Positions 7,709 through 63,005 are shown, counted from the first letter of the stretch. The stretch: DNA of 64,000 bases from Candidatus Babeliales bacterium (GCA_050179755.1 JBFXEV010000001.1:1193994-1257993); one strand, 5' to 3'. A program made the numbers and translations. Notes: generated by a model from the sequence alone, not told the origin.

Positions 7709-8436
7709 TGCGTATAACGTTTAGGGGAACTCGTGGCAATATTAAAGTGCGCTCAAAAGCGCATTATCGCCATACTGTGACCGAATTTGCATTTAGGAAT
7801 ACTAAGATTCTTATTGATTGCGGCCTTGATTGGTTATCACATGCCAAGAAATTGAGAGCAGACGCTTTGTTTGTTTCACACGCGCATCCTGATCATGTAG
7901 GCGGGCTTAAACGTGGTGTGCCATTTCCGGTGTATGCTACACAAGAAAGTTGGGATATTTTGGCAAATTATAAAATTGATGAACGTATTCTAATAAAGCC
8001 ACAACAGCCAATTTCTATTGGATCACTAATTGTTGAAGCTTTTTACGTAGAGCATTCATTTAATGCGCCAGCAATAGGTTATCGCATTAGTGCGGGCAAA
8101 ACTATTGTATTTTATGTTCCTGATGTTGCAAAAATTGTACATCCCCAAAAAGCATTATCTGGTGTGGATCTTTATATTGGTGACGGCGCAATAATTACAC
8201 GCACGTTATTGCTAAGAGAAAGCGACGGCATCATGCATGGTCATGCGCCTATTCTGGAGCAACTTGCGTGGTGCAAAAAGTATAAAGTGCCGCGCGCTAT
8301 TTTTACCCATTGCGGTACCGAGATAACTTTACAAGATTTTGGTAACATGCAAGAAATAATTCAAAAGCTTGGTGATGAATATGGCGTAGAAACGCAACTT
8401 GCATATGATGGATTAATTATCCCCAGATTATCTTGA
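7708..8436 (+). CDS. MBL-fold metallo-hydrolase
   Basis: ILIDCG, SHAHPDHVGG, VEHS, THC; TAATG coupling to the upstream gene. Confidence 0.88.
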   Translation: MRITFRGTRGNIKVRSKAHYRHTVTEFAFRNTKILIDCGLDWLSHAKKLRADALFVSHAHPDHVGGLKRGVPFPVYATQESWDILANYKIDERILIKPQQPISIGSLIVEAFYVEHSFNAPAIGYRISAGKTIVFYVPDVAKIVHPQKALSGVDLYIGDGAIITRTLLLRESDGIMHGHAPILEQLAWCKKYKVPRAIFTHCGTEITLQDFGNMQEIIQKLGDEYGVETQLAYDGLIIPRLS

Positions 8437-9247
8437 TACAGTCGGCATTAGTTAGGTTTTCAAAATTATTTCTTATGCCTTTGCCGCGCAATATTTCAGC
8501 TACTTCAGGCGCTCGAGCGCGTAAAATGCCTGCTGAAAAATTTATTAAATCATTACCAAATTGTGTACCATTTCGAATTTCGTCAGGTGTTATTTTGAAA
8601 TAACAATATGATTTTAAAAGGGCAAGTAGATCGAGATGAGCTAAATGTTCTTGGAGAGCGTTGCGATTAAAAGTTGTCTTGGTGAATGTTGGCGGCAAAT
8701 CAGTCCAGATTACTGCGGTGTAATTATGAGCTTGCGCCCAAGCCATTATGCGCTGAAGCATTGGATTTTGTTGATAGTAGTTATCACCAATTTGTCCTTT
8801 CTTGACCTCAATTGCTCCCGTATTGCCATTAAAATCTTTTCTACGATACGTTCTATTTAGTAGATTGATATAGCCAATGTTATCTGCGATTGTGCCTTCA
8901 CGTTCGCGCAAAGCAGCTATGGCATCATTTACATTATTACCATTAAATGTAGCAAAATAAGATTTTAATTCGCGCGCATTGATGCCGGGAGCAACCACTA
9001 GTGTTAAACGTCCATCATTGCTTTTCCGTGCATACTCAATACGCATGCCGGGGCCTTGTTGGCCATTGGATTTAAATCCATCTCGTTCTTTCAGTGGCAA
9101 ATTTCCAGGATTTTCTACTAAGGACCCAAATGCTAATATTGCAATGCGTTGGCCTGGTGCGTCCATGGCATTGGTTATATGTGTTTGCAGAAAGATAAAA
9201 CTAATCAAGGTGATTAATAGTTTATTTTTCATGAATAATCCCTTCAA
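8417..9247 (-). CDS. Secreted gamma-glutamylcyclotransferase-like protein
   Basis: IAILAFGSLV, EYARKSNDGRLTLV, LREREG resemble the GGCT/ChaC fold. Signal peptide ends NA-MD. Likely start 9232. Confidence 0.6.
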   Translation of the reverse strand: MKGLFMKNKLLITLISFIFLQTHITNAMDAPGQRIAILAFGSLVENPGNLPLKERDGFKSNGQQGPGMRIEYARKSNDGRLTLVVAPGINARELKSYFATFNGNNVNDAIAALREREGTIADNIGYINLLNRTYRRKDFNGNTGAIEVKKGQIGDNYYQQNPMLQRIMAWAQAHNYTAVIWTDLPPTFTKTTFNRNALQEHLAHLDLLALLKSYCYFKITPDEIRNGTQFGNDLINFSAGILRARAPEVAEILRGKGIRNNFENLTNADCIKIIWG

Positions 9248-9364
9248 GATACTTTAAATATATGTATGGGTGAAAACCCCATGTTTTGAGGATATCATTT
9301 TTGAAAGGATGATCGCAATGGTTTTGTTTTGAGGGCGAATCTTGTGTTTGAAGTCTACATGACT

Positions 9365-10474: not shown

Positions 10475-10476
10475 GA

Positions 10477-10881
10477 TTACGAGATTACGACGTTTGCAAA
10501 ATATGTTTTTGCAGGAGTTCCATCTTCACGCCAATGTTGTTTATATACTAATTCAATGGCAGTAGTTCCTTTTTCAAGTGCGGTGAATGCCCATGTTTCA
10601 TACCCTGTAAGATCAGGCGTTACTCTATCAGCAGGTATTTCTTGGAATGACCGTTTTACTTCTTTTAGATGAGCGGTTTCAAGTGGCGTGCGATATGACC
10701 AGCCATAACCGCCAGTAGGGTTTGCAGGGAGACGAATTTGGAACGTTTGACCTACTTTTACTGGTATGGTGCCTTCAAGCGCCATTTCGGGTTTAGAATC
10801 TTCTTTTTTTGATTCTCCACAACCAGGGGCAACAAGCAAAAAGGCTGAAAATAACAATAAGGAAAGGGTTTTTTGATTCAT
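10477..10881 (-). CDS. Chagasin-family (I42) cysteine protease inhibitor lipoprotein
   Basis: Lipobox-like APGC; L.ANPTGGYGW; LVYKQHW. Confidence 0.8.
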   Translation of the reverse strand: MNQKTLSLLLFSAFLLVAPGCGESKKEDSKPEMALEGTIPVKVGQTFQIRLPANPTGGYGWSYRTPLETAHLKEVKRSFQEIPADRVTPDLTGYETWAFTALEKGTTAIELVYKQHWREDGTPAKTYFANVVIS

Positions 10882-10996
10882 TTTGTTCTCTCGGTAGGTT
10901 TAGTAAGGTTAATAAGATTCTCCCCTGTAAGCGTAGTACAAGTTCCCTATTTTTGCAAATTGAACCTCTGGGATAGGTGAGGAATAAATGCAAGAG

Positions 10997-11024: not shown

Positions 11025-11063
11025 TATAGTAGAATTATTAAGTCTCATAAGGGGGTTTTTACT

Positions 11064-12590
11064 ATGAAATTCCATTCATACTTACCTGTTTTAGTAGTAT
11101 TCATAAGCGCTCATTTTATACTCAATGCAATGGAGCCAGAAACTCTTACTGTGCATACCAAGCGCTTTGGTAAGGCAATTAGCTTTACACGCCCTGCGCT
11201 TAGTGGTTTGGATCAAAAATTATGGCCGGTTGTCTTTTCAGGTTGTAGAGCAAAAAATGAAAGGCAACGAGCTGCAGTGGTAAGCATGTTAGAAAAATTA
11301 ATAACTCAAGGCGCTAATCTCAACGGTCAATATGTTATAACTAACGATGATGAAACTGCTGCACAAGTTGGTTTAGAGCAAGCTGGCTTTACACCGCTTG
11401 AATGTTCAATTGTGGCAGGTAATGTTCAATTTTCACGTGATTTGTTGAAGTTGGGTGCTCGTGTTGATGCTCCTTCTGATATGAATTCGGCGCTACATGC
11501 TGCAGCACTTAATAGTAATGCACGAGTTGTTCCAGAACTTCTTGCTCGTGGCGCAGATGTTAATTTCCGCGACATGTGGGGGCAATCAGCAATATTTAAT
11601 GCAGTTTACAATAAAGACCATGCAATCTTTGATGCGTTAGCTAAAGATCCCTCACTTGAATGTGATGTTCCTGATAATCATGGCCAAACAGCATTGCATT
11701 ATGCCGTATTAGTGCAGGATCCCTCTCTTGTTATGATTAGTAAATTGCTTGCGCGCGGCGCAAGTCCGCACAAAGAAGATCGCTTAGGGTGTTCTCCCCT
11801 TGGATACGCTCGCTTGGCAGGCAATAAGCCAGTTGTAGATATGCTTGAAGGTAAAGTAGCTCAAGATGGATGGCTTGCAGGAACGGTTACTGCAGATTCT
11901 TATAAAGCTAAGCAAAAAAAACGTGAAACTTCTGGTGCCAAGAGACAAACAAATAAATCAAAGAAAAAGGCTAATGAGTTAAAGAGATCAACTTCGGGTG
12001 TGCAAATTGAGCCGATTTCTCCTACTAAGAAAATTAGAGAAGCGTTGCAAGGGGTCACGCTTGGTTCACCGCGTGTTTTATTTAATCAAACTAGTGACGC
12101 AGTAGAAGAGGTAGAAACCTTACAACCAGAACAACATAACTTTATTGAGCTTACATTTGATGCGCGCGTAACAGATTGGTTTGATGAAACATTTTTAAAT
12201 GAAGAAAAAGAAAAGTCTACATCGCATTTGCAGCTTGCTCGTTCGATTTATTATCACCAAATTCCTCAAGACGTAATTCGTTGTGTAATGCAACATGGCA
12301 AGCGCGAACCTTATGAGAGTCAGACGCGCAAAGATAGTGGAACTACATGGTATTTAAGAGGCAACATGATATTCGAAAATGCTTATGAAAATCCATGGCA
12401 ACAAGGTAAAGGTAATCAGCCAGGTTGGTATCACTGCACCATGGATTCACGCGGCGTGATATATCATGTTGGTTTTGATGTTATAAAAGAAAGTGCGCCC
12501 TTGCTTTCTGCATTCTTGCCAAAAGGTATTACTAAAGAAGTTACTTATCCTGGTGCACTAGCAGGTATTAGCCATCAGTTTGTATTATAA
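11064..12590 (+). CDS. Secreted ankyrin-repeat protein with unknown C-terminal domain
   Basis: Signal ending NA-ME; SALHAAA, GQTALHYAV, GCSPLGYA; basic linker. Confidence 0.88.
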   Translation: MKFHSYLPVLVVFISAHFILNAMEPETLTVHTKRFGKAISFTRPALSGLDQKLWPVVFSGCRAKNERQRAAVVSMLEKLITQGANLNGQYVITNDDETAAQVGLEQAGFTPLECSIVAGNVQFSRDLLKLGARVDAPSDMNSALHAAALNSNARVVPELLARGADVNFRDMWGQSAIFNAVYNKDHAIFDALAKDPSLECDVPDNHGQTALHYAVLVQDPSLVMISKLLARGASPHKEDRLGCSPLGYARLAGNKPVVDMLEGKVAQDGWLAGTVTADSYKAKQKKRETSGAKRQTNKSKKKANELKRSTSGVQIEPISPTKKIREALQGVTLGSPRVLFNQTSDAVEEVETLQPEQHNFIELTFDARVTDWFDETFLNEEKEKSTSHLQLARSIYYHQIPQDVIRCVMQHGKREPYESQTRKDSGTTWYLRGNMIFENAYENPWQQGKGNQPGWYHCTMDSRGVIYHVGFDVIKESAPLLSAFLPKGITKEVTYPGALAGISHQFVL

Positions 12591-14369: not shown

Positions 14370-15644
14370 ATGTCTGTTCACAAATATATTCTTTTTTTTA
14401 TTTGTTTATTTGGTTCTCAATTAAATGCAGGATTTATTGCAGGGACTATTATCAAAACAACGCAAGGTTATATTCCCATTGAGATGATAGTAGAAGGTGA
14501 CCAAGTATGCTCTTACAATACTGAAAAGAATGTATTTGAATTCTATGCGGTTACGCATATAAATCAAAAGAAGGTGACTCATTTAAAAAGCATTGCGGTT
14601 GATCAAGCTATTATTATTACTGATACAGAACAGCAGTTTTATCTATGCAATGAAGAAAAATGGATCAATGCTTTAGATTTACAGCCTGGAATGCAACTGC
14701 AAAGTTATTTGAATAAAAAGTTATGCATTAGTGAGGTAAAAGATTTTTTTATTAATGCAATTATTTACGAATTGACAGTTGAATGTAATCATAATTTTTG
14801 TGTAACAACACATGAGCTTGTTGCGCATAATTTTGTAATCGCTATACCAATTTTGGTTTTTGGAAGTGGGAAAATAGCTTTGGCTACAGGAGCTTTTAAA
14901 GCATTTGTTCTTGGAGCTGGAACCGCGCTTGGTTATATTGCAATTTCTAAGATGATAGGAGCATCGTTAGATGAAAATATGGATCTTTCTCATGTAAATT
15001 TTGAATCTTCTGATCCATTTGCGCAGAAAGGCGGCATTTACGAAGTTGAGAAACAAACTCATGGACCGCGTGCTGGTCAAGGTTGCATCACAGGCGTGCA
15101 TGATACGTCTACTTCATTTCCTAAAAAGCCATGCGTACAACCGCTGAGTGGCACTACTGAGTTAACTTGCGGGACTGGCAATGAGAAATCACTCATTTAT
15201 GGAGATTATGTAGGAAAGCAATCAAGTGAAATATTGCCCCAAGATGCTGTATTTGAAAAGAGATGCATCATTTCTGATCCAAAGTTACTAAGTGAGCTTG
15301 AGCAAAAAGAAAATGGTTTTGCTGAATTGGACTTGAATGCAGTAAAAGAACAAGCCGCTTTGTACAAAAAGAATTCTCAACCAAAAGCACCAGACCCTAA
15401 TGGAGCGCAGGCGCCGGGCTTACCTGAAGAAAAACATGGTTTTGAGCCGCCAAAAAATTGGGACGGTAAAAAAGTAAGACACCCAGATAATGGAAGAATT
15501 GGTTGGCCAGATAAGTATGGTTATATATGGGTTCCGTCAGGACCGTTTGGGCATGGTGGTGCGCATTGGGATGTGCAAGATCCTGATGGTAGAAGTTATG
15601 ATAATGTTTATCCAAGCGGACATATTAGGCCAGGAAGAAAATAA
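14370..15644 (+). CDS. Polymorphic toxin: signal peptide + Hint domain + C-terminal Ntox37-like domain
   Basis: GFIAGT...YELTVECNHNFCV...LVAHN is a Hint pattern; C-terminus GWPDKYGYIWVPSG..GHGGAHWDVQ resembles type-37 toxins. Confidence 0.8.
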   Translation: MSVHKYILFFICLFGSQLNAGFIAGTIIKTTQGYIPIEMIVEGDQVCSYNTEKNVFEFYAVTHINQKKVTHLKSIAVDQAIIITDTEQQFYLCNEEKWINALDLQPGMQLQSYLNKKLCISEVKDFFINAIIYELTVECNHNFCVTTHELVAHNFVIAIPILVFGSGKIALATGAFKAFVLGAGTALGYIAISKMIGASLDENMDLSHVNFESSDPFAQKGGIYEVEKQTHGPRAGQGCITGVHDTSTSFPKKPCVQPLSGTTELTCGTGNEKSLIYGDYVGKQSSEILPQDAVFEKRCIISDPKLLSELEQKENGFAELDLNAVKEQAALYKKNSQPKAPDPNGAQAPGLPEEKHGFEPPKNWDGKKVRHPDNGRIGWPDKYGYIWVPSGPFGHGGAHWDVQDPDGRSYDNVYPSGHIRPGRK

Positions 15645-15653: not shown

Positions 15654-15920
15654 ATGCAAGAAATTGTTTTGATATGTACACCGTTGAGATTTTATAGTCA
15701 AAATGATGAAGATTTAATGTTTGGATGGCTCGATAAAATTAAAAGTGTAACAAGTTATAAAGGCATTGGTCGTGAATTACATGTATATATAAAATCTAAA
15801 AATATACCTAAATTAGACTTATTAGAGCTGATGGGAATATTTGATAGATATAAATTTGATGCAAAGCAATTAGAAATTTTTAAGAATGAATCAAATCAGA
15901 AATGGTTTGAAGAGAATTAA
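15654..15920 (+). CDS. Probable cognate immunity protein
   Basis: 88-aa AT-rich ORF 9 nt downstream of the toxin, no signal peptide. Confidence 0.65.
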   Translation: MQEIVLICTPLRFYSQNDEDLMFGWLDKIKSVTSYKGIGRELHVYIKSKNIPKLDLLELMGIFDRYKFDAKQLEIFKNESNQKWFEEN

Positions 15921-19768: not shown

Positions 19769-20494
19769 CTATTCTGAATCCTCTTGTGAGTCTTCATTTC
19801 CTGCCAATTCCTTTTGTGCACGGCGTAATTCCATTAACATATTTGTTCTGCTTAGTGCTGCCGTAGCGGGTGAGTCTTTTTCTTGTGCATCATGTACTTC
19901 TTTTCTGAACATTAATGGCGTTGCTTCAATAGCAGCAGTTAAACATGCTATCATGTCCTCATTTTTTTTTGCCTTTGCGTAATCGAGTGGCGTATTATTG
20001 GCATTATCGTTTGCCTCTTTATCGGCTCCAAAACTCACGAGTGCTTTGGCAATTGTATTTTGTCCGCGAATAACAGCTTCATGCAGGGCAGTCATGCCCA
20101 TACTGTTAGTAGCATCAAGAGCATCAACTTGTGCTGCTTGCACCATAAGAAAATGAGCAATTTTCCCGCGTGCGCGCGAGCTGCCATCATGTGCTGCAAA
20201 ATGCAAGGCTGTTTGCCCTAGTGGTCCTGCCATAGTAAGGCTTGCGTTATGTTGTGTCACTAGCGCTTTTACTGTCTTAAGTTTGCCGGCAATTACCGCT
20301 ATCATAAGTGGCGTGTGCCCTGTAGCATTAAGAGCATCTATTGCTTTTGCATCTTTACTCTGTGCTAAATACTGGCTGATACCATTTAAATCTCCCATTC
20401 TTGCAGCTTCGTGTAATGCAAAATCACTTTGCATGCTATAAAGGGAAAAGACATTCATAAAAAATACAAAGGAAAGCATTATATTTATTTTCAT
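19769..20494 (-). CDS. Secreted ankyrin-repeat protein
   Basis: ALHEAA, GHTPLMIA, GQTALHFAA, GMTALHEAV; signal ending YS-MQ. Confidence 0.9.
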   Translation of the reverse strand: MKINIMLSFVFFMNVFSLYSMQSDFALHEAARMGDLNGISQYLAQSKDAKAIDALNATGHTPLMIAVIAGKLKTVKALVTQHNASLTMAGPLGQTALHFAAHDGSSRARGKIAHFLMVQAAQVDALDATNSMGMTALHEAVIRGQNTIAKALVSFGADKEANDNANNTPLDYAKAKKNEDMIACLTAAIEATPLMFRKEVHDAQEKDSPATAALSRTNMLMELRRAQKELAGNEDSQEDSE

Positions 20495-24402: not shown

Positions 24403-25002
24403 ATGGCAAAAGAAAATTACCTAATAGAAGGAACTATTTTTATGAATAAGAACTACAAAAAAGTTAAAATGTTAGCTGTTTTATTATTGGGGGGATTTTG
24501 TTTTTCTGCTTATGCAATGAATTCAGAAGAAATTGTTCAAGAATCTCCCTATCAGAAATTAATGAATTCTGCTTGTCAAAATGACAATGATGCTGTTACA
24601 GCATTGTTAGCTCAACATCCAGAGTTAGCAAAAGAAGCTACCTCTACTAACCAAGGAATTGATCCACTTAGATGGGCAGCACATCACGGCAATGTAGATA
24701 TGGCGAAACTATTATTGGCTAAAGGATTTACCTTAAGAAAATCAAATGATGGTGCAACAGCATTTCACTCTGCAGCTTATGAAAAACATCATGAAGTTTT
24801 GGCATTGCTCTTAGATCAAGCAGATGCGTCAGCATTAACAACATTGCTTGCTTCTAAAGCTAAAATTAATCATTTATATTTGACACCTTATGAAGCTGCT
24901 TGTGATCGTATTAATAATCCTTGCGCAGAGTTGCTTGAGCCTAGTGCTGTGCAACAGAGAATCGATGTGCGTGGTGCGCTTGCAGCGGAAAATGCAGAAT
25001 AA
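24403..25002 (+). CDS. Secreted ankyrin-repeat protein
   Basis: PLRWAAHHGNVDMAKLLL, GATAFHSAA; AYA-MN. Likely start 24442. Confidence 0.85.
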   Translation: MAKENYLIEGTIFMNKNYKKVKMLAVLLLGGFCFSAYAMNSEEIVQESPYQKLMNSACQNDNDAVTALLAQHPELAKEATSTNQGIDPLRWAAHHGNVDMAKLLLAKGFTLRKSNDGATAFHSAAYEKHHEVLALLLDQADASALTTLLASKAKINHLYLTPYEAACDRINNPCAELLEPSAVQQRIDVRGALAAENAE

Positions 25003-25072: not shown

Positions 25073-26611
25073 ATGAAGAAAAGAATAAGTTTACGCCATC
25101 TTATTTCTATATATTGCCTTGTATATATGCCACTTACTCTTGCTATGGATAGAACAAAAAAGGCACTGATGTTAAAAAAAGTTGGCGAACATGCTCAGCA
25201 TACAACCAATACGTTGCAAATGACGTTGCCAACTTCAGCGCAACCAGAGATAAGCGATTTGCGAGAAGTAAAAGTTTTTAGATTGGTGCGTTATGTTGGA
25301 ACACTTGCTGATGCAATCAATCAATCTCAAGATGGTCAAGGAGTTACTTGCCTTGCAGATAAAATGAGATTGGTGGAAAAGTTGCGCGGCCTTGGGGTAA
25401 CGCAAAATGATGCAGTCGCATTAGACCAAATTGAGCAAGACGTATTGCATGAAGTAGAATCAACACTTATTACTTCAGTTGAAGAAGCGCTTAATTTCAT
25501 ATCTCAAGAATTTGGGGTAGAATTTTCTGATGCAAGTGAAAGCCAAACAGAATTGAACTCTCACAGTACTGAATCTCCAGCACCAAGAGTGATGCGGCAC
25601 AAACCTTTAATTATACAAAAAAAGGATACTCAAATATATAAAGCGCTTGCATCAGGTAATCCTGCTACGCTACAAGAGCTTCTTGCAGGCGGTAATACTC
25701 CTGAATTAGACCCTAAAAGATGTACTATTGAGGGTGGCAATGGCGATACGCCGTTATTTTGGGTGCTTGATCCTGAGCTTAAAATTTCTACACAAGCAAG
25801 AAAAGAGATGATTGACTTGCTTTTGGCAGAACGTGTGAGTATTGCCAAAGTTAATGATAATGGTCACACCGTAGTGCATGAGGCGATCTTGAGTGAGCAT
25901 CCCGAAGTTGCTGCATTGTTTCCTTATTTATTTGAAAAAGAAATGACTGAAGGTCTTATTAACCTTCAAGGTCAAACGCCGCTCCATGTGGCAGTTGCAC
26001 AAGGCCTAGTTGATAAAGTGCAGTATATTCTTTCATTGCGCACATCTGCGTTGGAGGAACCTGATTTTGAAAATCAAACGCCGTTACAAGTAGCTTTCAA
26101 TAAACATTTGCCTTCAAAAGATAAATTGGTGATAGCGCATGCATTAATTGAAGCAGGAGCTAATATGGAAGTTACTAATGCAGAAGGCGTGCCACTCATT
26201 TTTGATGTAGTCAATCGGGTAGATCTTGCGGGTGTAGAATTACTTCTCGGGCATGGGGCAAATTGCAGGAGTGTTAATTTACAAAATCATACGTTGTTGG
26301 AATTTGCTCAAGCAAAAATTGGCAAAACAGAAAAACCAGAAGTTGCCCAAAGAATATATGATGTTATAAAGGAATATGTTGAGGGTAAAAGGTTGCCAAG
26401 CTTTTTAAAAGTTGAGGCATCAAAATCGGCTGCTGCAAGCCCTTATGTGAGCATTACTGTTCCTGCAAGCTTACAAGGTCAAGTTGATATGCAAAAATTT
26501 AGAGAAAATATTATACGTGCTTTTGTAACACCGGGCCAAGATGGTGCTTCGTTACTGCAAAAAATGTTAGTTGCATCATTGAATGAAAATAAGGAAGAAT
26601 CACATGAATAA
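25073..26611 (+). CDS. Secreted ankyrin-repeat protein
   Basis: GDTPLFW, GHTVVHEA, GQTPLHVAV; TLA-MD. Confidence 0.88.
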   Translation: MKKRISLRHLISIYCLVYMPLTLAMDRTKKALMLKKVGEHAQHTTNTLQMTLPTSAQPEISDLREVKVFRLVRYVGTLADAINQSQDGQGVTCLADKMRLVEKLRGLGVTQNDAVALDQIEQDVLHEVESTLITSVEEALNFISQEFGVEFSDASESQTELNSHSTESPAPRVMRHKPLIIQKKDTQIYKALASGNPATLQELLAGGNTPELDPKRCTIEGGNGDTPLFWVLDPELKISTQARKEMIDLLLAERVSIAKVNDNGHTVVHEAILSEHPEVAALFPYLFEKEMTEGLINLQGQTPLHVAVAQGLVDKVQYILSLRTSALEEPDFENQTPLQVAFNKHLPSKDKLVIAHALIEAGANMEVTNAEGVPLIFDVVNRVDLAGVELLLGHGANCRSVNLQNHTLLEFAQAKIGKTEKPEVAQRIYDVIKEYVEGKRLPSFLKVEASKSAAASPYVSITVPASLQGQVDMQKFRENIIRAFVTPGQDGASLLQKMLVASLNENKEESHE

Positions 26612-27353
26612 ATTTTATCTGCGTTTTTTTGTTCTTTCTGCTGCACTCTGTCCTTTACTGCTTTGTGCAATGGACGCAAGCATAGTATCACCTGAGAAAG
26701 CTGTGCCACCATCAGACATAGAAAGGCCTATAGCTTTTCCTCTTCATAGAGCTATTGCACAAGGCTTTATTACTGAATCCAGATTATTAGTGGATCATAA
26801 TTCACCTCTTGAACTCCGTGATGCTGATGGGCATACGCCACTGCAAGTTGTTTTTAATTCTCATTTGAATTCGCACACGCGTATTGTTCTTGCCAGTATA
26901 TTGATTGAAGCAGGAGCGAGCATGGAAGTCTTGGATGCCGAAAAATCACCACTTCTTTTTTCTTTAATTAAAAAAGTAAATTTAGATGGTGTTAGGTTAT
27001 TGCTTGGGTATGGTGTGAATCTTAGAAGTACTAATTTCCAAGGCAGAATGCCGTTAATATACGCAGATGAAAAAGTTAATACGTCTGAAAATCCTAAAAC
27101 AGAAGAAATATCAGATTTAATTGCACAGTATTTGGACGGAAAACGTAAACCTGAATTTGCGCATCTTATACAAACGCAAGCAGAGCGAGCGCGTTTATGT
27201 GCAGCAGCGCATCAAAGCGTGCTTGCTGCGTTACGGCAACAACGTGAAGTATTGGAAGAGCAAATGCGGTTGCGCCAAGCAGAAGCAGAACATCTTGCCA
27301 TGTTAGAAAAGAGTTTGCATTCCTCTGTTGATGAATCTGAATCAAAAAACTAG
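26604..27353 (+). CDS. Secreted ankyrin-repeat protein with coiled-coil tail
   Basis: PLHRAIAQG, GHTPLQV; LCA-MD. ATG 26604 preferred over the track start 26583. Confidence 0.85.
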   Translation: MNKFYLRFFVLSAALCPLLLCAMDASIVSPEKAVPPSDIERPIAFPLHRAIAQGFITESRLLVDHNSPLELRDADGHTPLQVVFNSHLNSHTRIVLASILIEAGASMEVLDAEKSPLLFSLIKKVNLDGVRLLLGYGVNLRSTNFQGRMPLIYADEKVNTSENPKTEEISDLIAQYLDGKRKPEFAHLIQTQAERARLCAAAHQSVLAALRQQREVLEEQMRLRQAEAEHLAMLEKSLHSSVDESESKN

Positions 27354-27427: not shown

Positions 27428-29482
27428 ATGCTTAAGCATGTTTCAGTTTTTATCATTTCTTTGGCTGCGTTTTTGCCCAATACGTTCTATGCAATGGATC
27501 CTATAGAAATAGCAACGCCTGTCCCACAACCAACTTTGCAGCGCACTCAATCGTTACCAAATCGTAAACTACAGCACATGCCAAGTGTGTTAGATTTACA
27601 TCAATATGAACTTGATGAAGGTAACGAGCAGCAAAGGCAAGCACACGCTGTAACGGTAGCAAGGCAAACACAAGAGCGTCTTAATCGTATGTTCCATGAT
27701 GCCGTTGGTTTGGCTACCGGAGAAAAACCATTGGGAGTTCATGATGAAAGGCATGTGAGCAAACAATTTGCACGAGCGCGTGAACTGCTTGCCCGCGGTG
27801 CAGATAGTAAGTGGGGGTATCCGCTTGCTCATTTTCTTGTAGCATGTAAGTTGCAAGAAGAAGGCCATTGTTGCGAAGTATCTCTAGATCGTGATTTTGG
27901 TGTTCCAGTGCGGGTAACCAATTATTCTACGCGCAAAGTGCAAAATCCTATGCTTTACGGGCAAGCTCATGAATTTCTTGCGTGGCTTGTTGATAATGGC
28001 GCAGACGTTAATCAAGCATGGCCGCAAGACCGTGTTGATGGTTTTACGCATGTTGATGCTCGCGGTGATGAATGTAAATCTAACGTTGTAGCAAAAGCAA
28101 CGGGCATTGTGCCGTTAGCCTATGCATTGCAATTGTGCCGTGAAGGCTGCTGTGTGCAAAAATTGCTTGATGCAGGAGCACAACCCTATAAAGGTGCATT
28201 ATATTATGCATTTCATTCGGCAAATCCATCTGCTGCTTTATTGTTACTTGAAGCAGGTGCAGCGATTGATGAGTTAGATAATCAAGGCAATGGCGCCGCT
28301 CATTGGGCGCTTGCTTTGCATAGCCCAAAATTGCGGCTTGCGGCGCTTAAAGCTTTGCAAGAACGAGGAGCTTCCTTTTCTGTGCCAAATAAAGCGCGTC
28401 ACACTCCCTTGCATATGGCAGTATTTGGTGAATTGGTTAATGAAAATGGTCATACTTATTGGCGAGATATATTAAAAGATGATGCAAGCTGTTTAGCATT
28501 TTTGCTTGAACATGAGCCAGCTCTTAATGCAAAAGGTGCGCAAGGCGTTACTGCTTTGTATGCTGCAGTAGATATGCCAAGCGTGTTTTATGCTGAAAAT
28601 CTTGCGAGCATTTCTCATTCTTTAGCCCGATTTCAAAATGATGTTCCTGCTGGGCAAGCGCTTGCACAATTATGGAAAGATAAAAAGTCTTACGACTTTT
28701 TTGCACAAAATAATGCCATGGTTGCTTTGTTATTAGCAGCAAAGGCTGATACATCAATTGCTCAAAAGGATGGGTTTACGCCAATTCATCGAGCGGCACA
28801 ACGCGGCATGGCAGAATGCGTGCGCTTACTTATAGCGGCTGAGGCTTTGGTAGACGCACAGGATAAAGAGTTTTTAACGGCTTTGCATCACGTGGCAGTA
28901 GCTAAGATTCCTTATGCAGAAAAAGCACAAATTATTAAGTATCTTACCGAGGCAGGAGCAAGCACGGAAGCTATTGATAAAGAAGGTAATACTGCGCTTA
29001 TAAGGGCAGCCATTGCTGGTGATGTTGATGGAGTTTCGTTGTTACTAGGATTTGGTGCTCGCGTTGATGCACGTAATTATAGTATGTTTACAGCAGCTGA
29101 AATGGTTAGATCAAAAGAGTGTGGTTACAAGCGTTATGAAGATATTTTGAAGCTGCTTGCAGACTATGCTCAAGGCAAAAGAAAACCACATTCAAGAGAT
29201 GGTAAACCTTTTGTGGATATTGCAGAAGGTGCAACGAGTCCTGAACAGGTAGGTGATACGTTGGGTAATAATGAATGGCCTGTAGAAGAACAAAGAGCTG
29301 CTGAACTACAACTATTAACTCGTGCACTTGCGCGTATGGAGCGTGAAAAAGTTGCTGCGCACATGCCAACGCCAGAAGAAAAAGCGCTTAGAGATGCAGA
29401 AATACATGCTTTGCGTCAAGCCAAAAAGATTATTGAGGGGGAAAAGGCAACATCAACAGCGTTCCCAAGTGTGAGGGTTTAG
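27428..29482 (+). CDS. Secreted ankyrin-repeat protein
   Basis: Many ANK repeats (HTPLHMAV, GFTPIHRAA, GNTALIRAA); FYA-MD. ATG 27428 follows AAAGGA. Confidence 0.9.
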   Translation: MLKHVSVFIISLAAFLPNTFYAMDPIEIATPVPQPTLQRTQSLPNRKLQHMPSVLDLHQYELDEGNEQQRQAHAVTVARQTQERLNRMFHDAVGLATGEKPLGVHDERHVSKQFARARELLARGADSKWGYPLAHFLVACKLQEEGHCCEVSLDRDFGVPVRVTNYSTRKVQNPMLYGQAHEFLAWLVDNGADVNQAWPQDRVDGFTHVDARGDECKSNVVAKATGIVPLAYALQLCREGCCVQKLLDAGAQPYKGALYYAFHSANPSAALLLLEAGAAIDELDNQGNGAAHWALALHSPKLRLAALKALQERGASFSVPNKARHTPLHMAVFGELVNENGHTYWRDILKDDASCLAFLLEHEPALNAKGAQGVTALYAAVDMPSVFYAENLASISHSLARFQNDVPAGQALAQLWKDKKSYDFFAQNNAMVALLLAAKADTSIAQKDGFTPIHRAAQRGMAECVRLLIAAEALVDAQDKEFLTALHHVAVAKIPYAEKAQIIKYLTEAGASTEAIDKEGNTALIRAAIAGDVDGVSLLLGFGARVDARNYSMFTAAEMVRSKECGYKRYEDILKLLADYAQGKRKPHSRDGKPFVDIAEGATSPEQVGDTLGNNEWPVEEQRAAELQLLTRALARMEREKVAAHMPTPEEKALRDAEIHALRQAKKIIEGEKATSTAFPSVRV

Positions 29483-38874: not shown

Positions 38875-39414
38875 TTGATTATGTCAAAAGTATCAACCTG
38901 GGGCATGTTGGCCCTTACTCTTTCCCTGTCTTGCTCAACGCTGGGCATGGACTATATTCCAAAAGCTCTTAAATCGGGTAGGCTCTGGGGTGCTGTTGCC
39001 GTGGCTACGGTAATTTCAGGGGCTATTTATTATCTTGAATATTGGCAAGATGCGCCAAATCGCGATTTGTTTCAGGGTGTTTGCGAGGGTGATTACAACA
39101 AAGTAGCACTTGCGCTCTATGACGGCGCTGATCATTTACGCAGAGCAAAAGATGGCAGCACGTTGCTCCATTATGCAGTGCGGCGCGGGCATCGCGATAT
39201 TGTTCACTTGTTAACGGCAGCTTCACTACCTGGCAGGCCACTTATTAATATAGCAGATGTTGCTGGCAATACGCCACTTTATTATGCGGTAGAAAAAAAT
39301 GATGCATCGATGGTAAAATTACTTATCTTATCTGGCGCATGTAAAGAATGCACGTCAGACGTGCGCATGACACAAGAATTAGAAGAAAAAATAGAGAAGC
39401 TGGCCTACACTTAA
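38875..39414 (+). CDS. Ankyrin-repeat protein with signal/TM segment
   Basis: GSTLLHYAV, GNTPLYYAV; TLG-MD. Confidence 0.85.
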   Translation: MIMSKVSTWGMLALTLSLSCSTLGMDYIPKALKSGRLWGAVAVATVISGAIYYLEYWQDAPNRDLFQGVCEGDYNKVALALYDGADHLRRAKDGSTLLHYAVRRGHRDIVHLLTAASLPGRPLINIADVAGNTPLYYAVEKNDASMVKLLILSGACKECTSDVRMTQELEEKIEKLAYT

Positions 39415-44484: not shown

Positions 44485-44676
44485 TTAAGTAAAGTAATAG
44501 GAAGACAATGTGCCAAAATTGCTACGACTTTCATCACTTTCTTTCACAATCAGGTCAGTAATAGCGCGTTCAAAATTATCTCTTTCAGGCGACCATGATG
44601 GTTTAAAGAATTCCATAGTATGAATTGGTTGAAAGCATAAAATGCTTACATTTATTGCTAAGATACATTTTTTCAT
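44485..44676 (-). pseudogene. Truncated secreted-protein gene (signal peptide + short stub)
   Basis: MKKCILAINVSILCFQPIHT-ME..., only 63 aa, directly after fic. Confidence 0.45.
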
Positions 44677-44677
44677 A

Positions 44678-50046: not shown

Positions 50047-51207
50047 TTATCGTTGAGTAAGATCGTTAATTACTTCATAGCACAAAAGGTGTTTCCCTGT
50101 GTGATTAAGTGCATCAATACAATTTTTTACAAACGTTTGGCAAGGTTCAGGTAACGGAGCCATAAGTTCACGTGCGCGGCGTAAGCGATATGCTGCAATA
50201 AGAGGCGCTACTGTTTGAATATAATCTGCGTATTCGCTCGATGCTGCTGTGCAGCTTGCAAGCTTTGCTTTTCCTAAGTTTTTAAACCAAGTAAATGGGC
50301 AAATTTCAACTAATTGCTCAAGAGCAAGATGGCTATCTTGCACAAAAGGGAAAATTAATCTAAATAGCTTTTCTGAATAGATATCTTCTGGCATATAAGA
50401 AAGAATTTTATGTCGTATACTACGAGGAAGCGTTGGGCAGCATCTATACATGGATAATAATGCAGGAACAATGCATCTTTTACTCACTTCTTTATTAATG
50501 TTGATAAATATAATGGGTAACGAAAATGAAAGTGGTTGAGCATCTTCATCTAGAGGTAATGGCCCTGGCCGCTCATTCCACTGCGCATGCGCAATAAAAT
50601 CAATAATAAGATTATTAATTACCGGTGTTGGTACAGCGGCTTCACGGCTAAAAAACCGCGTAAGATAATACAGCGGTGTGCGTCCGTGTAAAGTGCTTGG
50701 TATATTCTCATGCGCACCATGTGCCAGTAATAACAACATTGCATGAACATGATTTTGATATACGGCAAGGCTGAGTGGCGTCCAGCCATTTTCGTTTTCT
50801 GTATGCACCGGTGCTCCTGCTTCTAAAAGGAGTTTCATAAAAAAAGTATTGCCAAGGGCTGTTGCTGCAATTAATCCATTGCCATAATGGTCATTAGGCG
50901 TAGTGCGCAGAGCACAAAGCCAATAAATAAAATCGGTGGTATCATTTTTGCGAATTGCTTGTTCTAAACTAATTTCTTTTGGGTAATATCTATGATCATT
51001 GAGAATTCGATAGCCAGCTTGAATATCTTTTCTCTCAATTGCCTCATCAAACGCTTTTTGAGCATCAGAGGGAAAACGCTTTTTTTTCTTGGGCAATTTG
51101 CTATCAAGAGCTTGAACAAGTGTGCGTTTTTTTTGATTATCATTATCCATTGGCCAAGCAATGCTTGTGAAGCTGAGCAAGCATAGTAACACCTTGTGTT
51201 TCATCAT
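50047..51207 (-). CDS. Secreted ankyrin protein with F-box-like motif and NLS-like segment
   Basis: AWP-MD; PKKKKR; GWTPLSLAV; LPRSIRHKILSYM. Confidence 0.85.
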   Translation of the reverse strand: MMKHKVLLCLLSFTSIAWPMDNDNQKKRTLVQALDSKLPKKKKRFPSDAQKAFDEAIERKDIQAGYRILNDHRYYPKEISLEQAIRKNDTTDFIYWLCALRTTPNDHYGNGLIAATALGNTFFMKLLLEAGAPVHTENENGWTPLSLAVYQNHVHAMLLLLAHGAHENIPSTLHGRTPLYYLTRFFSREAAVPTPVINNLIIDFIAHAQWNERPGPLPLDEDAQPLSFSLPIIFININKEVSKRCIVPALLSMYRCCPTLPRSIRHKILSYMPEDIYSEKLFRLIFPFVQDSHLALEQLVEICPFTWFKNLGKAKLASCTAASSEYADYIQTVAPLIAAYRLRRARELMAPLPEPCQTFVKNCIDALNHTGKHLLCYEVINDLTQR

Positions 51208-51269: not shown

Positions 51270-52493
51270 TTAATGCCAATTAAGAGGATTGAGCACTTCT
51301 TTTAATGTTGCGTCTTGAATTATATCACAGGCTTGTTGTTGATCTTTATTTACAATGCCTAATATTTTACGCAAATTTAGTGTTTCATCAGAGGTATGAC
51401 AACTATGCTTTTTAAGATCTAGTAAGCAGGCATCAAGATACTGCCTTCTCATTGACGAAACACTAGCATAATGTGGCATCAGGAGCTTAGCAAGATTTTC
51501 GCTGCCGGTTTGCACGCATTCTATTGGCATGTGGGAAAATATACGCAAAATTATTTCACGTGGTAATGCAGGTAAATCATTTTCAGAATTATTCCCGTGT
51601 CTTTGATTTATAAGGAGTACTGTTTTCAGCTGCGCACGAGCCGCTAGTCTAAAATCCTTAGTATATTTTGTGTTTACCATGAGAGCAGCTAGTATTCTTT
51701 TATTATTCAATCGCGCAGCGGCATGATATACCGTATTGCCATCACTATCCTGATGACTCATATAATTGCCATGTGCACGTACAATTTCAATAATCTCAAG
51801 TGCACGATCTTCCGTTTCTTGCGCATCATATTCTGGTGCATAGTCTGGCTTTCTTTGTAAGCGCTCACAAAGAATGTGCAGTGCGTGACCTTGATATATA
51901 TGATGCAAAGGTACATTATTGTGCCATGTCATAGGGGGTGGTGTCACTGCTGCCCCTGCCTGAAGTAATGTGCGCACTAATTGCGGATTCAAGCATTGCA
52001 CTGGCGTGGCAATAGGCCTGTGCCCTAACAAATCATCAACAGCATTGATGTGTGCCCCCATTGCAATCAAACGTCTTACTACTGGCACCTGGCCCCGGGC
52101 AAGAGCACCAATAAGTGGAATCCATCCATTTTGATCGCGTGGGTTTATATAAGCATCATGAGCTAATAATAAGTTGACTATGCCAAGATGACCTGCACTT
52201 GCTGCGTAATGCAAACATGTGCTTTTATCACATCCCTCTTCATCAAGCGGATCTTCGTAATACAATAACACATTAGAACTTACGCCAGCGTTTAAAAGTT
52301 GAGCCGCTTCAGCCTCGTTGCCATTTTTGCATGTAAGCCATAGTTGTTTTACTTGTTCTTGTTCTTGCGGCGTGCGTCTGGCGCCTTCACGAGGAGCAAT
52401 CAAGTGATGCATCCCTAAAGCCGTTACCGAAACAAAGCTTGCAAGAAACGCCAAAAAGGCAAAGGAAAATAATTTTACAGGGGAAAAGGTCAT
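51270..52493 (-). CDS. Secreted ankyrin protein with C-terminal F-box-like motif
   Basis: TCLHYAASAGHLGIVNLLL, GNTVYHAAA; LPALPREIILRIFSHM. Confidence 0.88.
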   Translation of the reverse strand: MTFSPVKLFSFAFLAFLASFVSVTALGMHHLIAPREGARRTPQEQEQVKQLWLTCKNGNEAEAAQLLNAGVSSNVLLYYEDPLDEEGCDKSTCLHYAASAGHLGIVNLLLAHDAYINPRDQNGWIPLIGALARGQVPVVRRLIAMGAHINAVDDLLGHRPIATPVQCLNPQLVRTLLQAGAAVTPPPMTWHNNVPLHHIYQGHALHILCERLQRKPDYAPEYDAQETEDRALEIIEIVRAHGNYMSHQDSDGNTVYHAAARLNNKRILAALMVNTKYTKDFRLAARAQLKTVLLINQRHGNNSENDLPALPREIILRIFSHMPIECVQTGSENLAKLLMPHYASVSSMRRQYLDACLLDLKKHSCHTSDETLNLRKILGIVNKDQQQACDIIQDATLKEVLNPLNWH

Positions 52494-55286: not shown

Positions 55287-55721
55287 GTGATTGCAGGAGC
55301 ATTAGTTAGTAAGTTGTTGGCGATGATATGGCTATGGAGTAATATTGCCTATCTCTATGCAATGGAAGTCACTTTTTGGCAAAAAGGTTTTGAGCGTGTA
55401 CTCACTACTGCAATCGCGGTAGGAATCACACAAAGTATTAAAGAATCTGAACTTCCCCAAGAAATTAAAGTCCCGCTATGTTGTGCAACTTTTACGGTAG
55501 GCGCCTATGGCATTGACTGGCATAAACCTGTTCCTATTACTAACACCAAATCGTTGGTGCTAGCACTTGCAGGATCCACACTTGCACTCACTGGTTCATC
55601 GCGCCTTCTTACAGAAATGAATGTAACTGCGCGCAGTAAAGCTACTATAATGACAGTGCTTTATGGCATTACTCTTTGGCGGTTTTACAAGGCAAATGCA
55701 GGAACAGATCATGACAATTAA
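55287..55721 (+). CDS. Hypothetical membrane/secreted protein
   Basis: AAGGAG RBS, GTG start; LYA-ME; hydrophobic segments. Confidence 0.6.
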   Translation: MIAGALVSKLLAMIWLWSNIAYLYAMEVTFWQKGFERVLTTAIAVGITQSIKESELPQEIKVPLCCATFTVGAYGIDWHKPVPITNTKSLVLALAGSTLALTGSSRLLTEMNVTARSKATIMTVLYGITLWRFYKANAGTDHDN

Positions 55722-56589
55722 GTTAGTGTATGTACTTTTTATTTTGCTTGCGCATCAGCCAATGGTGTTATGCATGAAACGTGAAAGAGGAAGAATAGCC
55801 CCGCAAGAACGATCTGAAAAACCGAGATTGAAACAATCCAAATCAACAAGTTATGGCAGGCAAATTGCAAAAATGCATGAAGCAAAGCAACGTAAACCTT
55901 CACTCCATGGCGCTGCATATTTGATAGGAAGCGAAATTCAGAAAATGTTGGATGCTGGTGCAGATCTTCAAGAAATATATAAAGGCGAAACGCCTTTGCA
56001 TAGGTTTATTTCTGCATCGCATCAAGATGGTATTAAAAAATTATTATTGCACGGCGCATTACTCACTGCTGTTGATGAGGATGGCGATACTGCAGTGCAT
56101 AGAGCAGCATATAATAACCATCACATTGCGCGGATCGTGCTTATAAGCCCACAAGGTAGCCCGGTGCGTATGACACAAGAATTTAAGCGAGCGCGCGAAA
56201 CAACCATAGTTTTTATGCAGGCCCTTAAAAATCGTAGCTTTCCTCGCGAGATTCGAAGAATAATTCGAAATTATATGCTACCAGATCCAAAAAAGCTCCT
56301 CGAGATGCTACCATTACACGAACTGCTCTATTATCTTAAATATTATTCTGTAGCGCAAAAAAAAGTAATGCTAGACTTTCTTGTTAAGCGCCATATTTCT
56401 GACGTATTTTTTGCATATAATGCAGAAAATTATCGTGGGCAAACTCCTTTTGCCTTGGCAAAAGATCGCTCACACCGCATGCGCCCATTTACAGCGCCAG
56501 TGCGTTTATTAAATAGTATACATTTTAATGAACTCAAGCCTTTAATTACAGCCAATTATGCCCAATTATTGGGCTTGCAGGTTGCCTAG
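55711..56589 (+). CDS. Secreted ankyrin protein with F-box-like motif
   Basis: GETPLHRFI, GDTAVHRAA; FPREIRRIIRNYM. ATG 55711 preferred over the track start 55663. Confidence 0.8.
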   Translation: MTIKLVYVLFILLAHQPMVLCMKRERGRIAPQERSEKPRLKQSKSTSYGRQIAKMHEAKQRKPSLHGAAYLIGSEIQKMLDAGADLQEIYKGETPLHRFISASHQDGIKKLLLHGALLTAVDEDGDTAVHRAAYNNHHIARIVLISPQGSPVRMTQEFKRARETTIVFMQALKNRSFPREIRRIIRNYMLPDPKKLLEMLPLHELLYYLKYYSVAQKKVMLDFLVKRHISDVFFAYNAENYRGQTPFALAKDRSHRMRPFTAPVRLLNSIHFNELKPLITANYAQLLGLQVA

Positions 56590-59355: not shown

Positions 59356-59375
59356 AGTACTCCCCTTTTTTGCTT

Positions 59376-60800: not shown

Positions 60801-60935
60801 AGTTCTTTACTTACGATAAAATTAAGTTAAATAGGATCTTTAAACAAGATTATTATACTGGAAAATTAGCAACAGGTAAAAATTTGATCATTACGAGCAA
60901 GGAGCAAGCCATACATTAATTCTAGAGGAGAGAGA

Positions 60936-61844
60936 ATGAGGAGGTTGTATAGTGCGCTGCTTTTACTAGCTTCGCTTAAAGATGGTATAGAAGCAATACC
61001 GTCGCCAGCATGTTTTTCGTTATATAAACATGCAAGAAAACAAGATGAGATAATCTATCTTTTTGCCCATGGCTTACGCTCATCGCAAAATCAAGGACTT
61101 ACGCTCTTCTCTAATCATTACAATAAGCATTCGTGGATTATTCAACAACCGTTTATGTTATTTGATTTTCCGGATGCACATGAAAAAAAAGGATATTGCC
61201 GAGACGAGCATGTTAATCTTGGTCAAGAAGAAGACATTGAGCGTATGAAGTTAGCATACGAATACGCCATTAAAAAATTACCTCAAAGCGAGGGTTTTGT
61301 GCTCACCGGTATTTCGCGGGGTGCTGCAACATGCATAAATTTTGTAGCAATGCATCAACCTGAACGAGTCAAAGCGGTGGTCATAGAATCACCGTTTGAT
61401 ACCATTAAAAGTGTGGTAAATCATCTGCTTAATAGATTTAATTTGAGTTGGATGCCTTATTCTAGTGATATTGGCATGATGCTTATTGACACCAAATTTG
61501 AAAGACTAGATACTCAAGGTATTTTTCCCGTTGACCTCATTGCGCATATACCTGGTCATGTGCCTATACTTATCGTAGGTTCACATTCAGATGACGTAGT
61601 GCCTATTGCAAGCGTACGCAAATTATACACCGCGCTAAAGCGAACGGGGCATGCGCACGTATACTTACTGGAATTGTCTGCGGGCCGGCATGGGCGCCTT
61701 ATTAAGGGTGAGCAAGGGCCCTTATATGCTGCATGCGTACATGCATTTTATGAGCGCTATGGTTTGCCACATGTTCCGGAGTTAGTTGAATATGGTAGAG
61801 AAATTCTTGCCCAGTGCCAGCCTGAGGTGGTCGGTTTTTGGTAA
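60936..61844 (+). CDS. Secreted alpha/beta hydrolase
   Basis: FAHGL, GISRGAA nucleophile elbow, ESPFD, DDVVP, GRH. Confidence 0.88.
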   Translation: MRRLYSALLLLASLKDGIEAIPSPACFSLYKHARKQDEIIYLFAHGLRSSQNQGLTLFSNHYNKHSWIIQQPFMLFDFPDAHEKKGYCRDEHVNLGQEEDIERMKLAYEYAIKKLPQSEGFVLTGISRGAATCINFVAMHQPERVKAVVIESPFDTIKSVVNHLLNRFNLSWMPYSSDIGMMLIDTKFERLDTQGIFPVDLIAHIPGHVPILIVGSHSDDVVPIASVRKLYTALKRTGHAHVYLLELSAGRHGRLIKGEQGPLYAACVHAFYERYGLPHVPELVEYGREILAQCQPEVVGFW

Positions 61845-62006
61845 TTGAATTAATTAAAACCGATTTGCCCGAGCGGGCACTTATTTTCAAGAAAAGGGAA
61901 GTAAGTTGAGGGGTTGCGTAAGAAATTAAAAGAAGCTACGCTTTTTAAATAATGCTACCTTGTTCGCGTCAATAATGTGTAATGCCAAGCAAAAGGAAGT
62001 CTGCCA

Positions 62007-63005
62007 ATGAAGCGGCTTATATACATTACTCTCGTATGTTTTGTGCAAACAACATGGTGTATGGATGCATTGTGGATTGATGAAGAAGATACAATCATTC
62101 TAAATTCACTTACGCAATCAGTGCATCAGCGCTATTATTATATTGCACGCTTAAGCAAAGTACATGAGCTACTCAAAACGCTGCAGTGTACGTGCCCCAT
62201 CTTGACACAAGAATTTCAAACTCTATCATATCTTGCGCCCGAGCATCCACGCATTATACAATGCATTAACGAATTACAAACTAGCCGCACATGCGAGCCT
62301 CTTTTGGCAGTATGGCAGGAAATTAAGGCATACAAATATCTTGAGGATGAGCAATGTATTAAAGAATATTCTTCTCTTGTTTGCATTATAGCGCAACAAT
62401 TGATTACTGCATTGCAAGAGAAATTATCTGCCGATGATAAAAAAACCCTTACTATCTTGCTTAATCGAGCAACGTATGAAAACGAAGCAGTTAACTCACC
62501 TGATATTGTTTATCGTTATTATATTATAAAACGTCTTAGAAAAGTCATGCAATTACTTAAATTATATGAACTTATGCCACTTAATTGTGCGATCAGTGCT
62601 TATTTACCCGATTCTACGCACGCAAAGATTGCACAATGTGCCGATGCTATGGAAAAAAGTAACACGTTTGCTCCATTGCTTACACTTCTAAAAGAATTTG
62701 AATGCTATCAAGGACTGGAAGATGTGGCAAGCATCTATCAAATGTTACATTTAATTTTACTGGTAGAGCAACAAGTTCTTGTGCCACAGCACTTGCCTGA
62801 TGCTCATGCACGTTTTACTGCTTCTTCTAAATCAGTTGAAAGTCTTTCTGTTGAAGAACTATTAAAGTCAATTGATATCATGACAGCTCACCTTGAACCT
62901 TATGCACGTAAAGAGAAAAAAGTTGCCGCGTTACCTTCAGTATGCATGTTAGCAGCATTGGCTTGTAGCAGTTTTGTTACTTGGTATGCACTGAGCAAGA
63001 TATGA
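62007..63005 (+). CDS. Secreted protein with two RYY..RL repeats and C-terminal TM
   Basis: TWC-MD; internal repeat; hydrophobic tail. Confidence 0.75.
   Translation: MKRLIYITLVCFVQTTWCMDALWIDEEDTIILNSLTQSVHQRYYYIARLSKVHELLKTLQCTCPILTQEFQTLSYLAPEHPRIIQCINELQTSRTCEPLLAVWQEIKAYKYLEDEQCIKEYSSLVCIIAQQLITALQEKLSADDKKTLTILLNRATYENEAVNSPDIVYRYYIIKRLRKVMQLLKLYELMPLNCAISAYLPDSTHAKIAQCADAMEKSNTFAPLLTLLKEFECYQGLEDVASIYQMLHLILLVEQQVLVPQHLPDAHARFTASSKSVESLSVEELLKSIDIMTAHLEPYARKEKKVAALPSVCMLAALACSSFVTWYALSKI

Follow-up and report, generated by a model that had tools for sequence, protein, structure and literature searches.

The window analysed here, a stretch of 64,000 nucleotides (positions 1,193,994-1,257,993) of the single-contig genome of Candidatus Babeliales bacterium (GCA_050179755.1, JBFXEV010000001.1; 1,525,295 bp, 39% G+C), codes for a series of exported proteins in which the N-terminal leader is followed directly by a methionine, mostly as Met-Asp or Met-Glu. 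Our analysis of the source genome, termed G000, and of its relatives, among them the same-genus genome G001, revealed that this pattern is real, beyond chance and genome-wide. It is a motif of the protein, [A/G/S/C/T]↓M-[D/E>K,Q,N] (the arrow marks the predicted cleavage site), which is under selection, lies at the predicted leader-peptidase site and is specific to one class of exported proteins.

Open reading frames (ORFs) were called with our own greedy, non-overlapping caller, which yielded 1415 ORFs comprising 90% of the genome. Leaders were assigned by a hydrophobicity and charge heuristic of our own (not SignalP) that requires an ATG start, a net-positive n-region and an uncharged core of 9 residues with a mean Kyte-Doolittle hydropathy of >= 2.2. 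A leader followed by a Met that stands behind a small residue and ahead of any charged residue defines the motif class. According to these rules 594 of the 1415 ORFs are leader-like, and 193-196 of the 594 belong to the motif class. Since the heuristic both misses true cases and admits false ones, the genome-wide counts are approximate: the junction PARA↓MD was put in the non-motif class, and the ORF at 941-2353 and one pilin (N_methyl) were wrongly included in the motif class.

The enrichment was also measured independently of any cleavage prediction, from the residue that precedes the first charged residue (or the first Asp/Glu) behind the hydrophobic core. Met precedes the first charged residue in 129/592 leader-bearing ORFs, the first Asp in 57/159 and the first Glu in 46/166, jointly 103/325 (binomial tail 3e-106). 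Elsewhere in the same proteins only 1.4% of the Asp/Glu residues are preceded by Met. The enrichment is thus about 20-fold, and it is Met-specific, as Leu precedes the first Asp/Glu at its background rate (32/325). The sequence-only reading had described the residue behind the Met as mostly Asp, Glu, Asn or Gln, and this holds for 129 of the 196 motif proteins, with counts at +2 of D57, E46, K20, Q18 and N8.

The leaders themselves resemble genuine Sec-type signal peptides, with a positive n-region and an uncharged core, both required by the heuristic, and small residues at -1, in agreement with the sequence-only reading. Comparison of 156 motif leaders with 290 other leaders revealed an n-region of ~6 residues in both, a net charge of +1.8 vs +1.7, a length of 22 vs 20 residues and a slightly lower hydrophobicity in the motif class (2.1 vs 2.4). 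In the 196 motif proteins the -1 residue is A92, G32, S27, C22 or T12 (185/196) and the -3 residue is one of A/L/V/I/T/S/C/G in 174/196, so that the flanks obey the (-3,-1) rule. A Met-blind scorer, which ignores the +1 residue, placed Met at +1 in 96/441 cases. When applied to the 196 motif proteins, it prefers the bond immediately before the Met in 116, one further upstream in 59 and one after the Met in 13, and finds no site in 8; a leader-peptidase site before the Met rather than after it (116 vs 13), as had been proposed, is therefore the predicted one. Other leader types do not account for the class: a lipobox-like string as in lipoprotein (peptidase II) leaders was present in only 6/196 and a twin-arginine motif as in twin-arginine translocation (Tat) signal peptides in only 3/196, and the hydrophobic core precedes the Met, which is opposite to the cleavage layout of type IV pilin-type (class III) leaders. 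An extended N-terminal signal behind the Met was likewise rejected, as the excess of Pro, Ser and Gln there is mild.

The motif is neither a start codon nor a nucleotide signal. A Shine-Dalgarno (SD)-like motif is located upstream of 74% of the 193 leader ATGs, but of 4% of the junction ATGs, which is less than the 10% found for internal ATGs elsewhere. The leader is therefore translated and its ATG is the real start, as had been assumed, which rules out a gene-start artefact. In the nucleotide logo of the junction, information is confined to the first two positions of the -1 codon (GCN/GGN) and of the +2 codon (GAN); no information at wobble positions and no -10-like signal was detected. Because the wobble positions are free of information, the constraint acts on the protein, and a nucleotide-level motif, a restriction-like site or a -10 box can be dismissed. 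The same data bear on the idea that translation also starts at the internal ATG and gives a leaderless cytoplasmic isoform beside the exported protein. ATG is the only codon whose conservation might point to initiation, and at G000:C1:1311122-1313467 (-) an in-frame, intact leader behind AAGGAG has ATA at its start position, so that initiation there may depend on the junction Met. However, the junction ATGs have neither the SD-like motif of the leader ATGs nor a -10-like signal for a leaderless transcript, the GAN codon that follows differs from native second codons, and among the orthologues and paralogues seen none begins at this Met in the absence of an in-frame leader. We consider a dual start the least probable of the explanations discussed here. 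The G001 orthologue of the 1311122-1313467 protein has a normal leader followed by Met-Met-Gln. Either ATA serves here as a non-canonical start codon, or the leader has only recently been inactivated.

Selection on the Met is seen from comparison with the same-genus genome, of which 400 kb, selected partly for ankyrin-rich regions, gave 193 reciprocal best pairs. Motif proteins evolve fast, with a median identity of 42% compared to 73% for non-exported proteins. Despite this, the junction Met is the best-conserved N-terminal position: it is identical in 28 of 36 orthologue pairs (78%), whereas the flanking positions reach 25-47%, and by eye 4 of the 8 non-identical pairs merely have the Met displaced by the alignment. 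Paralogue families also keep M-D/E at the junction behind dissimilar leaders, in 9/9 and 8/8 members (3 counted by eye).

These comparisons also speak to the alternative of the sequence-only reading that the Met is a relic, namely the old initiator of genes that were captured or extended at the 5' end and thereby gained a leader, kept by descent in expanded families. The genome does contain leader-bearing GlmU, UDP-glucose dehydrogenases and GT4 enzymes, and the motif is common to large paralogue families. However, the Met is far better conserved than its flanks in proteins of only ~42% identity, and the leader-bearing metabolic enzymes lack the motif. Moreover, the junction is unlike a native start, as only 1% of the non-exported proteins begin with M-D and 3% with M-E (n=305); Asp or Glu thus follows native starts in 4%, but the Met in 53% of the junctions. 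Family A1, named here for the protein encoded at 8417-9232, is the one family in which the start could be mapped. Eight of its 15 relatives are leaderless and start with MKIAILAWGS or similar, at a point 5-6 residues further downstream than the junction Met. In one relative with a leader, an insertion of ~27 residues separates leader and domain, with the Met still at the leader junction; at the junction position one relative has Leu and one is without Met. Since the ancestral start lies downstream and the Met follows the leader, an ancestral start codon is rejected for this family. A second family (62007-63005) has only two homologues, too few for this test. Overall, a relic origin is disfavoured and appears very improbable to us. 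Family A1 itself has no Pfam match and shares an invariant GSL...R.S...T.V...REGT...W.WT.L; it occurs elsewhere as leaderless proteins of ~190 aa and in this lineage in leader-bearing, C-terminally extended form.

The class-specificity became evident from Pfam scans of motif and non-motif proteins in the window and the first 400 kb, together ~30% of the genome. Besides 14 ankyrins in the window, the motif class was sampled by 41 further proteins, of which 27 belong to no family and 4 to WD40, with one each of ANK, TPR, Macro, DXD glycosyltransferase, M48, GH3, DUF2608 and the falsely included pilin. The non-motif class (127 scanned) comprises LspA, RseP, FtsW, MlaD, three thioredoxins, two solute-binding proteins and transporters, and also leader-bearing glycan enzymes and GlmU, numerous orphans and a small number of ankyrins, which were in part misclassified. 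Dipeptidyl peptidase III (DPP III), a glycerophosphodiester phosphodiesterase (GDPD) and one lipoprotein belong there as well. This supports the proposal of a motif characteristic of effector-like proteins (ankyrin, WD40, TPR, Macro and orphans); none of the housekeeping exported proteins checked carries it. The sequence-only reading had named two outcomes that would speak against it, cleavage after the Met and an equally frequent +1 Met in housekeeping exported proteins. Neither was found, as the site is predicted before the Met and the housekeeping exported proteins have none. GlmU and two UDP-glucose 6-dehydrogenases carry leader-like extensions without Met (L069:15070-16614 (+), L082:14624-16015 (+), L083:4615-6012 (+)).

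The distribution of the motif was determined as Met before the first Asp/Glu behind the core in 27 Babeliales genomes, that is, G000 and samples of 26 others (32-100 kb each, 400 kb for G001). Its frequency ranges from 0/20 to 11/19. Higher frequencies were observed in G000 (103/325), G001 (43/102), G022 (11/19), G011 (8/23), G016 (8/25) and G019 (6/20), and middle frequencies in G034 (4/16), G027 (4/22), G033 (2/12), G018 (2/13), G005 (2/16) and G049 (2/15). One case each was present in G002 (1/17), G006 (1/14), G010 (1/10), G025 (1/23), G036 (1/13) and G039 (1/24), and none in G003 (0/12), G004 (0/5), G007 (0/5), G008 (0/3), G009 (0/13), G013 (0/6), G015 (0/3), G032 (0/15) and G050 (0/20). 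The low-frequency group serves as a control for the pipeline, and the single instances present there are clear. Because the low-frequency samples hold almost no ankyrin proteins, the frequency may track the effector load and not the presence or absence of a mechanism. In a quick one-protein tree the five genomes first typed as high fall into one of two well-supported clades; the tree does not resolve the branching inside it and hence not a single origin of the motif. All genomes sampled from the phylum belong to one order. A Fisher test between motif-rich and motif-poor genomes is given no weight here, since the two groups were defined by the motif itself. In 80 peptidase-gene loci from public metagenome-assembled genomes the Met was found in 18/244 overall, each locus being too small to type its genome.

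We propose that a Sec-type signal peptide would be cut before a selected Met, usually followed by Asp or Glu, and that cleavage would thereby expose a uniform Met-Asp/Glu N-terminus on fast-evolving, eukaryote-like or orphan proteins, which are presumably effectors directed at the host. Ordinary sites would be retained in housekeeping proteins of the periplasm and membrane. Once cleavage has taken place, the bacterium itself may recognise the exposed Met-Asp/Glu as a sorting tag and so separate proteins leaving the periplasm from periplasm residents. This post-cleavage sorting or export tag for effectors is our preferred reading, held tentatively and well short of conviction. It is suggested by the parallel to the +2 rule for lipoproteins and to signals of the type found in Plasmodium, and would fit a phylum for which only type II secretion is reported. 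That such a tag is read at all, and by whom, is presumed here.

Several observations weigh against this reading. Peptidases, secretins and an acetyltransferase were searched for a reader of the tag, and no candidate was found among them. Signal peptidase I is present in 21/21 genomes searched, whatever their motif frequency, in one to three or more copies in the relatives (two in G001). G000 has two similar paralogues (G000:C1:1044143-1045009 (+) and 1506717-1507577 (-)), and the high-frequency genome G011 has a single gene, which makes a dedicated second peptidase unlikely. Tandem secretin pairs, ~5 kb apart (G000:C1:499870-505052), also occur in all 21 genomes and were rejected as the discriminating factor. 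An exported RimI-like GNAT with an N-terminal hydrophobic leader or anchor (L075:17525-18139 (-), equal to G000:C1:217525-218139) was considered as N-terminal acetylase for the motif; it is present in 13/21 genomes, of high and low motif frequency alike, and was dismissed for this reason. Further hydrophobic segments are found in 40/196 motif proteins. Nor is the tag required by every ankyrin protein: of 81 ankyrin genes genome-wide 35 were scored as motif-positive by the automatic rules and another 21 by eye, but ~13 have a leader without Met and ~12, mostly from one tandem array, have no leader (by eye); an ankyrin count with a local hidden Markov model gave 44/26/29 of 99. Finally, the class contrast rests on ~30% of the genome and on a heuristic with some misclassification, and the cleavage positions are predictions from sequence by our own heuristic and scorer. 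No shared upstream k-mer that would indicate a regulon was detected (best 6-mer p = 3e-4, insignificant after multiple testing), and the motif proteins have no CaaX, KDEL or other C-terminal bias.

The main rival to a bacterial-side sorting tag is a reading in the host. N-termini of the NatB type in eukaryotes are Met-Asp/Glu/Asn/Gln, and in the eukaryotic N-degron pathway Met is stabilising and an N-terminal Asp, Glu, Asn or Gln destabilising. The exposed Met could hence mimic a NatB-type N-terminus that is acetylated, or cap an acidic N-degron, and so stabilise or enable the effector in the host cytosol. The 129 of 196 junctions that give Met-D/E/N/Q, the eukaryote-like repeat proteins that carry them and the differences in frequency between lineages, as host adaptation might give, are all consistent with such mimicry. 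In addition it requires no bacterial reader and fits the shared peptidase and secretins. However, Lys (20) reaches about the same count as Gln (18) at +2, and Asn is seldom found there (8) even though these proteins contain as much Asn as Gln, so that the preference appears acidic rather than NatB-wide. Met is also not required for stability, since Ala at +1, the usual cleavage product, is stabilising too. Furthermore, NatB acts mainly on nascent chains, while the N-termini described here would arise by predicted cleavage in the bacterial envelope and not at the ribosome. Host-side mimicry thus seems rather unlikely to us, even as the foremost competitor.

The motif touches the cleavage site, and it could therefore simply be a processing optimum: Met-Asp/Glu would be the best P1'-P2' context for signal peptidase or Sec, on which young, fast-evolving secreted genes converged without any sorting meaning. 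An acidic early mature region favours export, the leaders of both classes are otherwise alike, and G000 and its same-genus relative have two peptidase I genes each, those of G000 being the similar paralogues described above. Against this, housekeeping proteins in this very cell evidently undergo processing although they lack the Met, frequencies of 0/20 to 1/24 occur in related genomes that share the peptidase family, and a strict preference for Met over Leu, Ile or Val has no known basis in the specificity of peptidase I. We regard convergence on a processing optimum as improbable.

The proposed sorting tag has precedents in layout, among them the host-targeting motifs that effectors of eukaryotic parasites carry shortly after their signal peptide. 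The Plasmodium export element (PEXEL) RxLxE/Q/D is cleaved and the new N-terminus xE/Q/D is acetylated, and oomycete effectors share an RxLR motif. Bacterial lipoproteins are sorted by the Lol-avoidance rule for Asp at +2, and Bacteroidota use an acidic lipoprotein export signal. In these lipoprotein rules, like in the motif proteins, residues right behind the cleavage site are often acidic, and there they decide the compartment; they act, however, on the lipidated Cys produced by signal peptidase II, whereas Met stands first here. For powdery-mildew effectors a Y/F/WxC motif close behind the signal peptide is reported (PMC2886064). Common to PEXEL, RxLR, Y/F/WxC and the junction described here is a short motif beside a classical signal peptide, distributed across large, fast-evolving and otherwise unrelated effector families, and PEXEL resembles it further in that the second residue left after processing is acidic or an amide. 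The likeness to PEXEL and RxLR is one of layout only, in that a range of effector families share a short, conserved sequence after the signal peptide. No RxL(x)E/Q/D or RxLR pattern is present in the logo of the motif proteins from -8 to +6, so that they are not members of these classes. In contrast to PEXEL and RxLR, the motif is bacterial and lies at the leader-peptidase site, no second protease would be needed, the key residue is Met, and a role in export is suggested by analogy. It is possible, if somewhat doubtful, that the Met-Asp/Glu exposed by cleavage does in bacteria what PEXEL/RxLR does in eukaryotic parasites, as a Sec-coupled export or host-targeting signal. It would then define an effector set of ~200 proteins per genome in a phylum without reported type III, IV or VI systems.

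Within the window, all 18 N-termini listed by the sequence-only reading are present as written. The leaders comprise 18-27 aa and start with ATG in 17 of the 18 ORFs (GTG in the ORF at 55287). About 32 ORFs of the window bear a leader (31 automatic, then curated by eye), of which these 18 have the Met junction, while fewer than one is expected from the Met share of the mature parts (1.8%). The description of these proteins as unrelated proved wrong within the window: 14 of the 17 ORFs scanned contain ankyrin repeats, with Pfam Ank families above the curated cut-off, and 3 belong to no family. Genome-wide, the Met motif spans many protein families. In the following, leader length, junction and position of the Met codon are given in brackets.

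On the plus strand ankyrin proteins are encoded at 11064..12590 (22 aa, LNA↓ME, 11130-11132), 24442..25002 with the longest ORF from 24403 (25 aa, AYA↓MN, 24517-24519), 25073..26611 (24 aa, TLA↓MD, 25145-25147), 26604..27353 with the longest ORF from 26583 (22 aa, LCA↓MD, 26670-26672), 27428..29482 (22 aa, FYA↓MD, 27494-27496), 38881..39414 with a TTG ORF from 38875 (22 aa, TLG↓MD, 38947-38949), 40359..42068 (24 aa, LHA↓ME, 40431-40433) and 55711..56589 (21 aa, VLC↓MK, 55774-55776). For the protein at 27428..29482 no orthologue was found in the same-genus genome, and its matches are to ankyrin repeats only. Ankyrin proteins of the minus strand are located at 19769..20494 (20 aa, LYS↓MQ, 20432-20434), 31421..32860 (25 aa, MQA↓MD, 32783-32785), 32845..34149 (20 aa, AQA↓MA, 34087-34089), 34134..35327 (20 aa, AQA↓ME, 35265-35267), 50047..51207 (19 aa, AWP↓MD, 51148-51150) and 51270..52493 (27 aa, ALG↓MH, 52410-52412). 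Pro at -1 in the 50047..51207 protein is atypical, and its orthologue has the junction AYG↓MD. Outside the window, a tandem array of ~11 leaderless ankyrin genes (starts MQ.., MK..) lies at G000:C1:1396453-1408234.

The A1 protein at 8417..9232 (-; 22 aa, TNA↓MD, 9164-9166) belongs to no Pfam family and has leaderless distant relatives. An orphan protein is encoded at 62007..63005 (+; 18 aa, TWC↓MD, 62061-62063), and its orthologue has the junction LSS↓MDALWIDEED. The GTG-start ORF at 55287..55721 (+; LYA↓ME, 55362-55364), also without Pfam family, is the weakest of the 18, with a poor n-region and an overlap with the next ORF. A 63-aa ORF at 44485..44676 (-; 20 aa, IHT↓ME, 44614-44616) is located directly downstream of a Fic gene; this Fic/DOC protein (Fic_N + Fic, 379 aa, without leader) and the small Met-Glu-junction ORF adjoin at 44485-45817 (-).

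Four exported proteins of the window had been described as lacking the Met, and all of them do: DPP III (Peptidase_M49, 36518..38707 (-), AYS↓KD), the GDPD (35691..36458 (+), VFS↓KE), a chagasin-type I42 inhibitor with the lipobox APG↓C (10477..10881 (-)) and a PT-HINT/Ntox37 protein with the leader LNA↓GF (14370..15644 (+)). The combination of PT-HINT and Ntox37 with a leader is of the polymorphic-toxin type, and the next small ORF (15654-15920) is a candidate immunity gene.

Dependentiae are widespread protist parasites. For two cultured species, leaders are reported to be abundant and type II to be the only secretion system known (PMC6561590, PMC4378268). For Babela massiliensis type II was the only system detected, and 79 of 126 ankyrins have signal peptides (PMC4378268), so that ankyrins mostly bear signal peptides, like those described here. 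For Chromulinavorax destructans leaders were reported on 44% of the coding sequences (PMC6561590), a share comparable to the 594/1415 observed in our genome. The word methionine is absent from the main texts of both reports, and these texts describe no Met motif. Full-text literature searches also retrieved no description of such a Met motif in bacteria. A class-specific motif at the mature N-terminus offers a mutable handle on how host-directed proteins are told from periplasmic ones, and a sequence rule for listing candidate effectors. If it is instead a host-side device for stability or mimicry, the leader-peptidase site would still be put to an uncommon use. Exported effectors may thus carry a label of a kind so far undescribed, and if the export or targeting reading is true, the effectors of these parasites would be readable directly from sequence.

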